Source of the DNA: Thermoplasmatota archaeon
Lineage (GTDB): Archaea; Thermoplasmatota; E2; DHVEG-1
Assembly (NCBI GenBank): GCA_041550515.1
Contig: JBFEOQ010000003.1
Span: 2,537 to 66,536, forward strand
Reading direction: 5' to 3'
Length of the DNA stretch: 64,000 nucleotides
This document shows positions 55,957-60,670 of the stretch, one piece after another. Below the pieces are notes generated by a model. That model saw only the letters and a list, made by a program, of their open reading frames with translations. It was not told the DNA's origin and searched no databases. The position numbers and the translations under genes are program-made. The first letter of the stretch is position 1; each line of letters starts with the position of its first letter.

Positions 55957-56904
55957 CTATGCTCCAATATATTCAGGAAGTTCAGATCCTTTAATAAGAG
56001 AAACAATAGTAGAATTAATAGGTGTGTGAATACCTTTCTTTTTTCCGTATATCACAATTTTTTCATTAATAAAACCAATTTCAGTAGGATTCTTCTTTTC
56101 GATGTCTACATGCATCGAAGTTCTATGATGACCTGCCCTATCAAGATAACCCATACAAAACCTTAAGAAATCTGGTTTAAAATGAATTCCGTTAGCTGCT
56201 GCAACCTCTATACCTTCACGAAGTATTGATTCTGCAAGATTTCTAGTGTATTTAAATTCCATCATTTGCTTCATAGTTCTACGTGTCAGAGCACAAACAG
56301 GACTCAAAGCAGCATTTAGAATAATTTTTTCCCATTCATATTTTTTAATATCATTAGTAAAACTTGTTTCTAAATCAGCTGCAGTTATAACCTCTGCAAG
56401 TTCTTTTGCTTTTTTTACTGCTTCGGGAACTAACATACCAATATAATTTGGAGCATTAAAAAAGGACATCCTCACTCTACCATTATCGATAAGATTACCA
56501 GCATAATTTACAACAATTCGTAATGTGTTTTTTTTCCCAAAAGCATCAGCAATTAGATCCTCATTATCTAAACCATTTTGTAATGCAATAAATGTCATAC
56601 CTGGTTTTACTACTGGTTTAAGAATTGGTAAAATTTGTGGTAGAACAGATGCTTTTACAGAAATAAAAATATAATCAAAATTTTTCCCACTAATTTCATC
56701 AATTCCGTAGCAAATATTATTTTTAGAAAAAGAAATATTCATATCTTTATAACCAGTCACTGAAAGACCACTTTTTTTTATTTTATCCATATGTGCTTTC
56801 ATTATATCAACAAGAGTGACATCATGACCTGCTTTTGCAAGATGAGCAGCCATAATACCTCCAACAGGACCAACTCCAATCACTCCAAATTTATATTTAC
56901 TCAA
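55957..56904 (-). CDS. Ketopantoate reductase (PanE/ApbA) family 2-oxoacid reductase
   Basis: 315 aa. N-terminal Rossmann motif FGVIGVGPVGG and an ApbA_C-like C-terminal domain. Confidence 0.75.
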   Translation of the reverse strand: MSKYKFGVIGVGPVGGIMAAHLAKAGHDVTLVDIMKAHMDKIKKSGLSVTGYKDMNISFSKNNICYGIDEISGKNFDYIFISVKASVLPQILPILKPVVKPGMTFIALQNGLDNEDLIADAFGKKNTLRIVVNYAGNLIDNGRVRMSFFNAPNYIGMLVPEAVKKAKELAEVITAADLETSFTNDIKKYEWEKIILNAALSPVCALTRRTMKQMMEFKYTRNLAESILREGIEVAAANGIHFKPDFLRFCMGYLDRAGHHRTSMHVDIEKKNPTEIGFINEKIVIYGKKKGIHTPINSTIVSLIKGSELPEYIGA

Positions 56905-58465
56905 AATTTTCTACCACCTTATTAAAACGTTCTCTTAAGACACGATGAAGTATTTTCCCTGTAGCAGTACGAGGCATATCTTCATCTTTTATGAAAATGA
57001 CTTTTTTAGGTCGTTTATATCCAGCCATTTTATCTTTACAATAGTCGGTTATCATTTTTTCTTTAAGGTTTGAACCCTGCCGGGGAACTATGACTGCTGT
57101 CACTTGTTCGCCCCATTTTTCGTGAGGAAGACCAATTATTGCTGCATCAAAAACATCGGGATGAGAAATAATAATATCCTGAACCTCACTAGGATATACA
57201 TGTTCACCACCTGTAATAATCATATTATCCTTCCGATCAACTATATAATAAAAACCATCTTCATCACGTTTTGCTAGATCGCCAGCACTAAACCATTCTC
57301 CTCTAAAAGAGGCATCTGTTACCTCAGGCATTTTATGATACTCATTAAATAACATAGGACCACGAGAATATAGTTCACCTACTTCATCAATGCCAACCTC
57401 GTTACCATTTTCATCTAACAATTTAATAAAATCAGTTCCAACTGCCTCATAGCCAATTGAACCAAGCTTTCGCAACTGATCATCAGGTTTAAGAAGTGTA
57501 ACAAGTCCAGCTTCAGTAGAACCATACGCTTCATAAAGTTCTACACCTGGAAAGAACTCCATAATCTCTTTTTTCATACTTTTGGAAACAGGTGCAGAGG
57601 AACATAATAATTTTTTTATAGAGCTAACATCACGCTTCTTTGCTTTATCAGATGCATTCAAAATCAGGTTATAATGAGTCGGAATTAACGAAATATAAGT
57701 AATTTTTTCTTTTTCAATAATTTCCAAAATTTCATCTGCTTTAAAATGACGAGCAGGATGGATATATGCTGTACCACCTAAATATAAAAATAAAAATGTA
57801 TAGAATGTAGAGTTCACATGATACAAAGGCATAACATTTAGACATATATCATGTTCATTAAAACCAAAATCAACTGCGTTTATCAAAAAAAACGCAATAT
57901 AGGATTCATGTGAGCGAACAACACCTTTTGGAACACCTGTAGTACCTGAAGTATAAAGAATAATCCAAGGATCATAACAATTAATATTTGTCTCAGGCTC
58001 AGAATCAGAAGAATTCTTTATAAAATCTTCATATTCAATGTATCCACGTTCTTTTTCACCAACAACAATATAATTTTCTTGTGGAATAGATTTTAGTTTA
58101 CCCCTTATTGAATTTACAATAGGTGTAAACTCATCATGGACAATAAATGCTTTAGCATCCGCGTTATCCATTAACATTAATATCTCTCGACCAACAAAAC
58201 GAAAATGTATAGGTGCGATAACTAGACCGGTTTTAGCAGCAGCTAAATATGCTTCAACAATCTCAATACAATTTTCAAGTAACACTGAAAAAGTATCACC
58301 TTTTTTTAAACCAAGATCAAGAAGACTATTAGCTAATCTGTTTACTCTTTTGTTAAGCCCAGGATAAGTAAAACTCCTAATACTATCTTTTAAAGCAATA
58401 TGATTAGGAAATTTTTTTGCATTCAACTTAATCATTTCACCAAGATTCAACCAACATGCCATCAT
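56897..58465 (-). CDS. AMP-forming acyl/aryl-CoA ligase (ANL superfamily)
   Basis: 522 aa. YTSGTTGVPKG, YGSTE and the C-terminal PRTATGKILHR. Confidence 0.9.
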   Translation of the reverse strand: MMACWLNLGEMIKLNAKKFPNHIALKDSIRSFTYPGLNKRVNRLANSLLDLGLKKGDTFSVLLENCIEIVEAYLAAAKTGLVIAPIHFRFVGREILMLMDNADAKAFIVHDEFTPIVNSIRGKLKSIPQENYIVVGEKERGYIEYEDFIKNSSDSEPETNINCYDPWIILYTSGTTGVPKGVVRSHESYIAFFLINAVDFGFNEHDICLNVMPLYHVNSTFYTFLFLYLGGTAYIHPARHFKADEILEIIEKEKITYISLIPTHYNLILNASDKAKKRDVSSIKKLLCSSAPVSKSMKKEIMEFFPGVELYEAYGSTEAGLVTLLKPDDQLRKLGSIGYEAVGTDFIKLLDENGNEVGIDEVGELYSRGPMLFNEYHKMPEVTDASFRGEWFSAGDLAKRDEDGFYYIVDRKDNMIITGGEHVYPSEVQDIIISHPDVFDAAIIGLPHEKWGEQVTAVIVPRQGSNLKEKMITDYCKDKMAGYKRPKKVIFIKDEDMPRTATGKILHRVLRERFNKVVENFE

Positions 58466-58487
58466 TTTTCCTCCATTTTCAACTATT

Positions 58488-59693: not shown

Positions 59694-59896
59694 TATCTTC
59701 TTTCGTGTTGATTTTTCCTTCTCAGCTATACGATCTCCCCCAGCATTAAAAAGATTCAAACAGAGAGCAAACCTGAATAACAGTTGAACTTATTATCTTT
59801 TTTTGTTTGTTCTATATTGTTTAATTATCAATGCTAAGTATCAAATACTTTAATACATTTTCTTTTTTTGATTAGCTCGTCAATTTGGTGAAAAAT

Positions 59897-60670
59897 ATGG
59901 TTAAGAATTACTTTGTTGGTATTGACGTTGGAACATCATACATAAAAGTTGTGATTATTGATGGAAAGAATAATATTGTTAAATCTCTTGTTAAAAAAAC
60001 AGGTTCTGATCTTAAGAATTCTATTAAAAACTCATTTGAAGAAGTAATTGCTACTGCAAAAATATCTTGGGAGGATATAAAATTTATCACATCTACAGGT
60101 TTTGGTAGAAACAATGTTTCTTTTGCTGATAGTGTAAAAACTGAGATTAGTGCTCATGCTAAAGGTGCTTATCATTATTTTCCTAAAAAGTGTACAATTA
60201 TAGATATAGGTGGTCAGGATACAAAAATAATTAAAATAGATGCAAAAGGAAAAACAATTGGTTTTAAAATGAATCGAAAATGTGCTGCAGGAACTGGTAC
60301 ATTTCTTGAGGAAATTGCATATAAACTTAATATTCCATTGGAAAATTTTAATATGATAGCCTTAAAATCTTCTATGGATACTTCACTTAGTAGTTTCTGT
60401 ACTGTTTTTGCATCTACTGAAATTCTTGCAAGAATTAAAGAGGGGGAAAAAATTGAGGATATGGTAAAGAGTGCGTTTGAATCTGTAGCTAGACGTGTTA
60501 TTGAAATGGACACTTTGGATAATACAATCATTATGACAGGTGGTGTAGTTGCTCATAATGAAATTATATCTAAAATTTTATCAAATCATGTTGGAAAGAA
60601 AATTTTTATGCCCCCCAAGCCGCAACTTTGTGGTGCTATGGGTGCAGCATTATTTGCAAAAGATATTTAG
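59897..60670 (+). CDS. HgdC/BcrAD_BadFG-type ATPase (dehydratase activator / archerase)
   Basis: About 257 aa from ATG 59897. GIDVGTSYIKV, NRKCAAGTGTF and CTVFASTE. It is divergent from the dehydratase-like operon. Confidence 0.85.
   Translation: MVKNYFVGIDVGTSYIKVVIIDGKNNIVKSLVKKTGSDLKNSIKNSFEEVIATAKISWEDIKFITSTGFGRNNVSFADSVKTEISAHAKGAYHYFPKKCTIIDIGGQDTKIIKIDAKGKTIGFKMNRKCAAGTGTFLEEIAYKLNIPLENFNMIALKSSMDTSLSSFCTVFASTEILARIKEGEKIEDMVKSAFESVARRVIEMDTLDNTIIMTGGVVAHNEIISKILSNHVGKKIFMPPKPQLCGAMGAALFAKDI

Follow-up and report, generated by a model that had tools for sequence, protein, structure and literature searches.

An orphan alpha-type HGD-D protein in a Thermoplasmatota archaeon as a candidate homomeric, ligase-dependent 2-hydroxyacyl-CoA dehydratase

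Introduction

To our knowledge, no 2-hydroxyacyl-CoA dehydratase or class I benzoyl-CoA reductase characterized so far does without a pair of different HGD-D subunits, of which the second carries a cluster with a presumed role in relaying or storing the catalytic electron. We analyzed a 64,000-nucleotide stretch of a Thermoplasmatota archaeon (GenBank assembly GCA_041550515.1, contig JBFEOQ010000003.1, positions 2,537 to 66,536 of the forward strand; hereafter the window, whose own numbering is used throughout) that contains an operon with a single HGD-D gene, the orphan, beside genes for a CoA ligase, a PanE/ApbA-family reductase and an FAD oxidoreductase, with an activator gene running divergently. 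The original prediction, made from the nucleotide sequence, proposed that this gene set runs from a 2-oxoacid through the 2-hydroxyacid and its CoA thioester to an enoyl-CoA. The comparative evidence supports that route, and context narrows the substrates to aromatic acids. On balance, we favor an oxygen-sensitive, ligase-dependent, homomeric, alpha-only 2-hydroxyacyl-CoA dehydratase that would act on an aryl-lactyl-CoA and feed beta-oxidation to benzoyl-CoA.

Among solved systems, the closest is HadBC of Clostridioides difficile with its activator HadI (PDB 3O3M/N/O). The orphan likewise has a separate HgdC-type activator, but it lacks a HadC-like beta subunit, and an ANL ligase takes the place of the CoA-transferase HadA. 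FldABC and FldI of Clostridium sporogenes (Dickert et al. 2002, cited in PMC13416013) share with the window system the radical family, an ATP-dependent initiator and the predicted conversion of phenyllactyl-CoA to cinnamoyl-CoA. FldBC is a heterodimer bound to its CoA-transferase and serves a reductive Stickland branch, whereas the orphan system has one subunit type and a ligase, and its product is probably oxidized to benzoyl-CoA. The class I reductases BzdNOPQ and MbdONPQ (PDB 8S02, 9G87) have in common with the orphan the alpha lineage, a [4Fe-4S] cluster held by three cysteines with an open site and an ATP-driven electron donor, and BzdNOPQ lies in the same genomic island. Class I enzymes comprise four subunits, one alpha-type, one double-cubane and two ATPase subunits, and have a catalytic Glu/His pair at the [4Fe-4S]-OH2 site; the orphan system has neither, since it lacks a double-cubane partner such as BzdN, has one ATPase gene instead of two and does not conserve the BzdO histidine. 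Finally, the double-cubane protein DCCP with its reductase DCCP-R (PDB 6ENO, 7YYL) and Escherichia coli YjiM/YjiL also combine one HGD-D subunit type with one homodimeric ATPase; unlike the orphan, however, they belong to the beta lineage and carry all six double-cubane cysteines.

The nearest counterpart in the literature is Dmul_24840-24870 of Desulfococcus multivorans DSM 2059, annotated in 2016 as a predicted phenyllactate dehydratase module (PMC5109826, Table S1). It consists of a putative phenylpyruvate reductase (319 aa), an activator (269 aa), a dehydratase "subunit alpha" (416 aa) and the ligase FadD4 (518 aa), with no beta subunit listed, and sits in an aromatic "catabolic hotspot" (PMC5109826). 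The ligase is Dmul_C24830 in the main text and Dmul_24840 in Table S1, where 24830 is a second AMP-dependent ligase (PMC5109826). The module is an annotation only; the paper reads the reaction as phenyllactate to phenylpyruvate and is silent on the absent beta subunit (PMC5109826). A "singular gene" 30% identical to FldB was reported in 2026 for the benzene degrader BzS1 (PMC13416013). We found no biochemical study of the orphan family in the literature, and no mention of the enzyme in those papers on Thermoprofundales and Thermoplasmatota that the search retrieved. The original prediction had called the variant biochemically uncharacterized, which still stands, although the module itself had been annotated before.

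Results

Gene content of the operon

The genes of the operon and its divergent partner are as follows.

58488-59693, minus strand: orphan HGD-D protein, alpha-type, without a beta partner; predicted dehydratase catalytic subunit (401 aa from ATG)
56897-58465, minus strand: ANL (AMP-forming) acyl-CoA ligase, predicted 2-hydroxyacid (aryl-lactate) CoA ligase (AMP-binding profile)
55957-56904, minus strand: PanE/ApbA-family reductase, predicted arylpyruvate (2-oxoacid) reductase (ApbA and ApbA_C)
54712-55950, minus strand: FAD/NAD(P) oxidoreductase, last gene of its strand's run (Pyr_redox_2)
59694-59884, no strand: divergent intergenic region (191 nt)
59885-60670 (TTG start) or from ATG 59897, plus strand: HgdC/archerase-type ATP-dependent activator (BcrAD_BadFG)

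The four minus-strand genes are tightly packed across 54712-59693: the HGD-D and ligase genes lie 22 nt apart, the ligase and PanE-like genes overlap by 8 nt, and 6 nt separate the PanE-like and FAD genes. The open reading frame coordinates bear out the genes, order, junctions (+22, -8 and +6 nt) and divergent activator of the original prediction, the 203-bp spacer it gave matches the ATG-to-ATG distance, and scans with Pfam and NCBIfam returned the same domains for the whole operon.

The orphan belongs to the alpha lineage of the BCR/HAD superfamily

The orphan matched the HGD-D profile PF06050 with 214.5 bits against a cut-off of 28.4 bits, as expected of a superfamily member, but scored below the NCBIfam cut-offs for HadB alpha (227.5 bits; NF052455, 750), BcrB (143; 487), BzdO (84; 449) and the double-cubane family (61; NF040772, 350). 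The best sequence match in the PDB was HadB alpha (3o3m_A, E 3e-48), followed by MbdO and then BzdO. When the AF2 model of the protein (pLDDT 92, pTM 0.91) was submitted to Foldseek, the top 20 matches were all BCR/HAD superfamily members with the two-domain alpha/beta fold; HadB alpha was closest (TM 0.90-0.92, 28% identity) and MbdO and BzdO followed (0.86-0.89), whereas beta-type subunits and DCCP reached only 0.71-0.79 (about 0.76 for DCCP).

A maximum-likelihood tree separated two lineages: a beta/double-cubane lineage of BzdN, HadC, MbdN, DCCP and E. coli YjiM, and an alpha lineage of HadB, BzdO, MbdO and the orphan HGD-D proteins. The orphans formed one clade of their own (support 100/99) inside the alpha lineage, within which the tree did not resolve their placement. 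This placement with HadB, BzdO and MbdO sets the orphan apart from YjiM, whose position is beside DCCP in the beta lineage. The label "YjiM-like" in the original prediction was thus phylogenetically wrong; such an origin is ruled out by the tree, and the term holds only in the sense of a single subunit type. Judged by its sequence, the protein is an alpha-type member of the BCR/HAD radical enzymes.

Three predicted cluster ligands and two additional invariant cysteines

Across an alignment of 81 family members, 128 of the 401 positions were at least 97% identical and five cysteines (31, 80, 120, 291 and 348) were invariant. Cys80, Cys120 and Cys348 align with the [4Fe-4S] ligands of HadB and BzdO and are the predicted cluster ligands. 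The original prediction had suggested a count of cluster-binding cysteines; the three of the HadB type are present, with two further invariant ones besides. The HadB-like motifs W-C/S-T-S-V and F/Y-P-E-N are likewise kept in the family, whereas the second cysteine ligand is followed by R-D in place of the N-Q of HadB.

In a profile-profile alignment with BzdN, DCCP and YjiM, Cys31/80/120/291/348 correspond to BzdN Cys36/73/100/263/327 (Aromatoleum numbering, PMC11971306), so that five of the six double-cubane ligand positions hold cysteine in the orphan family and only the counterpart of BzdN Cys293 is missing. In the AF2 model, Cys31 and Cys291 are at strand-to-helix linkers and face the cluster cleft. 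A double-cubane protein is nevertheless ruled out by the profile score (61 of 350 bits), the clade and the missing cysteine.

The same residues would suit an ATP-driven, minimal alpha-only aryl-CoA reductase, dearomatizing or dehydroxylating, in which the five-cysteine site combines relay and catalytic cluster in one subunit. We consider this rather unlikely. The occupancy of five double-cubane positions by invariant cysteines and the closeness of MbdO and BzdO in structure are what such an enzyme might show, but BzdO places its acid/base histidine in the motif Cys128-x-x-His131 (PMC11971306), and in the orphan family this residue is replaced by valine in an invariant C-R-D-V motif, the catalytic glutamate being retained.

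The orphan is widespread and has no paralogous partner

A homologue search returned more than 7,900 matches, the best 120 of which were all at least 73% identical, and a genome collection yielded at least 500 confirmed loci. The best 80 loci (61-78% identity) come from Thermoplasmatota, a Hermodarchaeota metagenome-assembled genome (MAG), Anaerolineae, Aminicenantes, Planctomycetota, Bacteroidota, Desulfobacterota, MAGs labelled Eubacteriales, Actinomycetota and Elusimicrobia; the fetched loci closest to the window operon are those of Thermoplasmatota. Neighboring genes were counted in 79 loci by tblastn with representative queries.

In none of the 79 loci is the orphan accompanied by another HGD-D gene within 3 kb, and genome-wide no other HGD-D gene was found in G003 (closed, Phycisphaerales), G004 (closed, Aminicenantes) or G007 (a MAG). 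In the closed relative G001, BzdN and BzdO are the only further HGD-D proteins, and the archaeon's own assembly (1.83 Mb, 88.6% complete) has three HGD-D genes, BzdN, BzdO and the orphan, all inside the window. Since genomes exist that have no other HGD-D gene, the orphan would work without a paralogous partner. The paralogous beta subunit that makes other 2-hydroxyacyl-CoA dehydratases heterodimers is absent, as the original prediction had read from the window, and a required subunit hidden elsewhere, which that prediction had named as a finding that would overturn it, was sought by whole-genome HGD-D counts and the 79-locus survey and is ruled out by them.

These counts also bear on the proposal that the orphan is not self-sufficient: in this archaeon it would pair with BzdN or another protein, or else serve the Bzd reductase as an accessory or alternative alpha subunit. 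The BzdN and BzdO genes lie 12-15 kb from the orphan within one island, and BzdNOPQ is nearby in four bacterial loci; such proximity is what a shared subunit would predict. The genomes with a lone HGD-D gene, the dedicated activator in 68 of the 79 loci and an extreme conservation that is the same whether or not Bzd is present make the proposal very improbable.

The 4.7-kb stretch recurs nearly unchanged (66-98% of sampled words) in 20 DNA or untyped sequencing runs, which belong to nine studies and cover sediment, marine, soil and mangrove samples. In three RNA-seq runs from sediment or wetland (X25, X26 and X27), two read-length contigs each matched the HGD-D gene at 95-100% identity; the FAD gene was matched by two read-length contigs in X25, and X27 gave short partial matches elsewhere in the operon region. 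RNA of the HGD-D gene is thus present, which is weak evidence of transcription and speaks neither for nor against co-transcription.

Some genomes of the Acidobacteriota group carry a divergent second copy within an open frame of about 770-790 aa (G030:C196:8353-9528, G035:C18 and G051:C9:2886757). In G030 this copy scores 407 bits against the orphan profile and adjoins a normal orphan (6287-7474). The arrangement resembles an HGD-D domain fused to another domain.

Activator, ligase and predicted 2-oxoacid reductase

The divergent gene product matched BcrAD_BadFG with 167 bits and TIGR00241 with 223.6 bits (cut-off 125.4), and, like BzdP and BzdQ, it has the cluster-ligand motifs KCAAGTG (Cys133) and FCTVFASTE (Cys172). 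Of the 68 loci with an activator gene, 64 have it within 3 kb of the HGD-D gene.

The ligase (AMP-binding, 273 bits, and AMP-binding_C) has as its nearest solved relatives FadD5, FadD13, feruloyl-CoA synthetase and 4-coumarate ligases. Among the 79 loci, 26 have an orthologue of this ligase, and an AMP-forming or ADP-forming (ACD-type) CoA synthetase lies within 3 kb of the orphan in 63. In the archaeon's own assembly no family-III CoA-transferase (PF02515) was found, family-I transferases not having been searched. The CoA-transferase usual for 2-hydroxyacyl-CoA dehydratases is thus missing and AMP- or ADP-forming synthetases are linked instead, in agreement with the ligase-for-transferase substitution of the original prediction.

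The PanE-like reductase scored 191.5 bits on TIGR00745, above the subfamily cut-off of 141, and missed every equivalog cut-off. Its PDB matches include 3wfi/3wfj, which we take to be D-mandelate dehydrogenase, a member of the PanE family. A second, 298-aa PanE/ApbA paralogue elsewhere in the archaeon's own genome (G000, contig C1), at about 74.2-75.1 kb (L093:1489-2385), scored 259 bits and thus above the operon copy on the KPR models; it is the better candidate for the housekeeping ketopantoate reductase. It lies between a glyoxylate-reductase-like gene and ThiI. Across the survey, 47 of the 79 loci have a 2-hydroxyacid dehydrogenase beside the orphan, and its family varies: PanE-like in 24, Ldh_2 in nine and a fusion of GlcD with a CCG Fe-S domain in 14. 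That unrelated dehydrogenase families swap at one place is strong evidence that the pathway includes a 2-oxo/2-hydroxy acid step, the one that the original prediction had assigned to the PanE-like enzyme. An aryl-CoA reductase would leave these three families unexplained.

Linkage to aromatic metabolism

The operon lies in a benzoyl-CoA catabolic island that extends from about 31.6 kb to the window end and includes the following genes.

44064-48230, plus strand: BzdNOPQ class I benzoyl-CoA reductase, presumed benzoyl-CoA sink (TIGR03190 489, TIGR03191 607 and TIGR03192 434 bits, all above cut-offs)
33169-43386: acyl-CoA dehydrogenase, thiolases, fused 3-hydroxyacyl-CoA dehydrogenase/enoyl-CoA hydratase, crotonases, Zn-dependent dehydrogenase and SDR (Pfam/NCBIfam)

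The enzymes of 33169-43386 are predicted to be available for side-chain beta-oxidation and ring opening. The island also holds a sodium-solute symporter (SSS), a ferredoxin, a large Fe-S flavoprotein, an AOR with its poly-ferredoxin subunit and a PaaK-type ligase. Elsewhere, recurrent neighbors of the orphan are a crotonase, a Had-like Zn-dehydrogenase, thiolases, a 3-hydroxyacyl-CoA dehydrogenase and an SSS transporter. BzdNOPQ is about 4 kb upstream of the orphan in L017, L021, L038 and L057. The gene string in L017, L038 and L057 reads BzdNOPQ, Fe-S flavoprotein, activator, orphan and ACD; in L038 and L057 it continues with PanE, a HisC-like aminotransferase (found in L034 too), PanE and 4-hydroxybenzoyl-CoA reductase-like (Hcr-like) genes for molybdenum hydroxylase subunits. 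Hcr-like, PaaK- and Oah-like genes turn up in other loci, and 28 of the 79 have an aromatic marker of this sort.

The D. multivorans module, which has the gene order of locus L022, provides physiological context. Its cells make FadD4, together with a hydratase, a dehydrogenase and a thiolase encoded in the neighboring cluster, specifically when grown on phenylacetate or phenylpyruvate; the organism grows on phenyllactate, lacks PadB and PadEFGHI and has Bam genes (PMC5109826).

The same dehydratase chemistry could instead serve a non-aromatic or broad range of substrates, such as 2-hydroxyglutaryl-, 2-hydroxyisocaproyl- or other aliphatic 2-hydroxyacyl-CoAs. In the first case the product, glutaconyl-CoA, would enter the lower benzoyl-CoA pathway; the aliphatic substrates would come from amino-acid breakdown. 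HadB, the closest solved relative, uses an aliphatic substrate, the adjoining beta-oxidation genes are generic, glutaryl-CoA-dehydrogenase-like genes occur in the clusters, and G003 has no true Oah. We regard this alternative as unlikely, though as the most serious competitor, because the genes linked to the orphan are BzdNOPQ, Hcr-like genes, PaaK and a HisC-type aminotransferase and not glutamate dehydrogenase or glutaconyl-CoA decarboxylase, because in D. multivorans the neighboring ligase is produced during growth on phenylpyruvate and phenyllactate is also a growth substrate, and because the ligase is akin to medium-chain and phenylpropanoid ligases.

Oah exceeded its curated cut-off in eight of 10 orphan-carrying genomes tested. 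Within a sample of 61 genomes from the phylum of G004, it was found in three of six orphan carriers compared with seven of 55 non-carriers. The association is an enrichment and not an obligate linkage, and the three carriers that lack Oah would fit a non-aromatic substrate as G003 does. Whether the orphan and the canonical pairs replace one another across the Oah-positive genomes of this phylum was also considered; the pattern looked suggestive but is weakened by a BamB-like protein in G035 and G051; this protein is 95% identical between G017 and G051.

Two Oah-positive genomes were searched for a class II reductase. Hcr-like and Had/Dch-like genes flank the orphan in G004 (L071), and Had/Dch-like genes do so in G007 (L028). 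G004 has no BamB-like reductase among its four AOR-family proteins, which are AOR/FOR-like (three by PDB search, one by 70% identity to one of the searched proteins), and a fifth, weak AOR match is an unrelated BNR-repeat protein. G007 has no BamB-like protein among those of its four AOR matches that were set against solved structures, a comparison that excludes L087 (compared by BLAST with other AORs only) and L091. Altogether seven AOR-family proteins of the two genomes were examined, and the five compared with structures were all AOR/FOR-like. In L089 (G007) and L090 (G004), an AOR-type gene is followed by a gene of the sodium:neurotransmitter symporter family; the two loci are 78-80% identical although one genome is from Aminicenantes and the other is labelled Eubacteriales, and in G007 the two frames are joined across one TGA.

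These two genomes are an argument for an alpha-only aryl-CoA reductase, as they are Oah-positive, have no HGD-D protein besides the orphan and show no BamB-like protein among the AORs compared. A wider form of the idea is that the family is a self-sufficient third branch of the BCR/HAD enzymes, an alpha homodimer with a relay and a catalytic cluster in each subunit, which would provide the missing aryl-CoA ring reductase in G004-like genomes instead of, or besides, a dehydratase; we consider this, too, improbable. Against a reductase role, the window, L017, L021, L038 and L057 already have BzdNOPQ, the other Oah-positive carriers G035 and G051 have a BamB-like protein, and D. multivorans has Bam genes. 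Such a role would also leave the aminotransferase beside the orphan unexplained.

The FAD oxidoreductase and other neighboring genes

The genes at either end of the operon region are listed below.

52431-54260, convergent with the FAD gene: AOR (609 aa)
54257-54715, convergent with the FAD gene: AOR Fe-S (poly-ferredoxin) subunit (152 aa), in ATGA overlap with the AOR gene
60680-61606, plus strand: radical SAM protein with a CPWNKCLFC motif (PF04055 81.9 bits; NCBIfam matches weak)

The original prediction counted the FAD oxidoreductase (Pyr_redox_2 209 bits; PadH-like 274 bits) among the members of the module. It matches AorC of Aromatoleum AorABC (8c0z_E) over its full length, residues 6-402 on 2-404, with 156 bits, a score that CoA-disulfide reductases and NADH oxidases equal. 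The 3' end of its gene overlaps the end of the convergent Fe-S subunit gene by 4 nt, and it is joined to the dehydratase module only in the Thermoplasmatota loci L004-L008. The AorC match, the convergence on the AOR genes and the restriction of the linkage to Thermoplasmatota make it more likely that the protein is an AorC-like AOR subunit that shares the transcript of the dehydratase operon, though it might supply electrons to the activator.

The translation start of the orphan may also need revision. Homologues with an ATG start share a 12-residue N-terminal extension (MAEEKKSxRKKI), whose first codon is ATA in the window gene (59729-59727, minus strand) and in L004, and ATC in L006 and L008, both of which have no downstream ATG. 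In the window gene and in L004, L006 and L008, a Shine-Dalgarno-like element, GGGGGAGAT, lies 5 nt ahead of this codon. Because a non-ATG codon follows GGGGGAGAT at this distance in every case, the pattern suggests that a non-canonical start codon is used in this archaeal lineage. The true start is likely ATA 59729, or else TTG 59759 (423 aa); given the conserved extension, the protein may be 413 aa and the spacer shorter (about 155 nt).

The radical SAM gene starts 9 nt past the activator stop, and its cluster motif is Cx4Cx2C rather than Cx3Cx2C. It adjoins the activator only in the Thermoplasmatota loci L004 and L006; AOR cofactor modification and cluster maturation are possible roles. In a subset of Thermoplasmatota loci (L006, L008 and L009), two to three tandem B12-binding radical SAM paralogues stand between the activator and the dehydratase gene; the window has none of these. 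Farther along (61612-62963, minus strand), a 98-aa ThiS/MoaD-family open reading frame with a terminal GG shares its sequence in part with the end of a gene for a 352-aa multi-pass membrane protein without a Pfam match; immediately upstream of this overlapping pair is the gene of the PaaK-type ligase (62982 to beyond 64000).

Discussion

The gene content and order, the alpha-type fold with its cluster ligands, the missing partner and the conserved neighborhoods can be read from the genomes themselves. We infer from them the substrate, the direction, the oligomeric state and every catalytic step of the pathway that we favor, in which phenyllactate is the most likely substrate from its context and 4-hydroxyphenyllactate or indolelactate are possible ones. 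The mechanism is modelled on the established chemistry of HadBC, HgdAB and FldBC.

Transamination of phenylalanine or tyrosine would give an arylpyruvate, which the PanE-like reductase would convert to the (R)-2-hydroxy acid, and the ANL ligase would then spend ATP to form the 2-hydroxyacyl-CoA thioester. As the carbon would be oxidized further, no free enoate would arise for a CoA-transferase, hence a ligase and ATP instead. The activator, a homodimer with one bridging [4Fe-4S] cluster on Cys133 and Cys172, would take an electron from ferredoxin and inject it into the dehydratase upon ATP hydrolysis. There, the [4Fe-4S] cluster on Cys80, Cys120 and Cys348 would bind the substrate at its one open iron and reduce the thioester to a ketyl radical; hydroxide would depart, the beta-proton would be removed and the electron would go back to the cluster, so that ATP would be needed for priming only. 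The resulting cinnamoyl-CoA would pass through the hydratase, dehydrogenase and thiolase of the island to benzoyl-CoA and acetyl-CoA, and BzdNOPQ would reduce the benzoyl-CoA.

Several points weigh against a homomeric aryl-lactyl-CoA dehydratase. All NCBIfam equivalog cut-offs were missed, that of HadB with 227 bits against 750. The cofactor is a second concern: HadB and BzdO have no equivalents of Cys31 and Cys291, and because these lie at double-cubane positions, the cluster may not be a simple one of the HadB type. The GlcD-type enzyme next to the orphan in Desulfobacterota normally would oxidize, not form, a 2-hydroxy acid, and the D. multivorans module is tied to the window operon family by shared gene order and sizes, from which orthology was deduced, and not by sequence. 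Nor is the aromatic link obligatory, since Oah is present in only half of the carriers sampled from the phylum. Lastly, G004 (CP070825.1) and G007 have Oah above its cut-off yet no other HGD-D gene, and their lack of a known benzoyl-CoA reductase leaves room for a reductase role. With these points counted, the pathway of the original prediction remains the best-supported reading, with three corrections: the protein is alpha-type, the FAD gene is probably part of the AOR system, and aromatic substrates are likely.

Metagenomic sequences that encode an alpha-only enzyme of this kind number in the thousands, come from archaea and many bacterial phyla and show unusually strict conservation. If the orphan needs no partner, the minimal architecture now accepted for ketyl-radical enzymes requires revision, and the two extra invariant cysteines are the obvious place to seek a new cluster arrangement. 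The module has been annotated before and is biochemically uncharacterized, but with D. multivorans there is a cultured carrier in which it can be tested directly. Through such an enzyme, phenylalanine, tyrosine or plant aryl-lactates would reach benzoyl-CoA via cinnamoyl-CoA, a route that the textbook anaerobic pathways do not include. The oxidation of aromatic amino acids in anoxic sediments by sulfate reducers without PadBCD and PadEFGHI would then be explained, as would that by sediment archaea such as Marine Benthic Group D.

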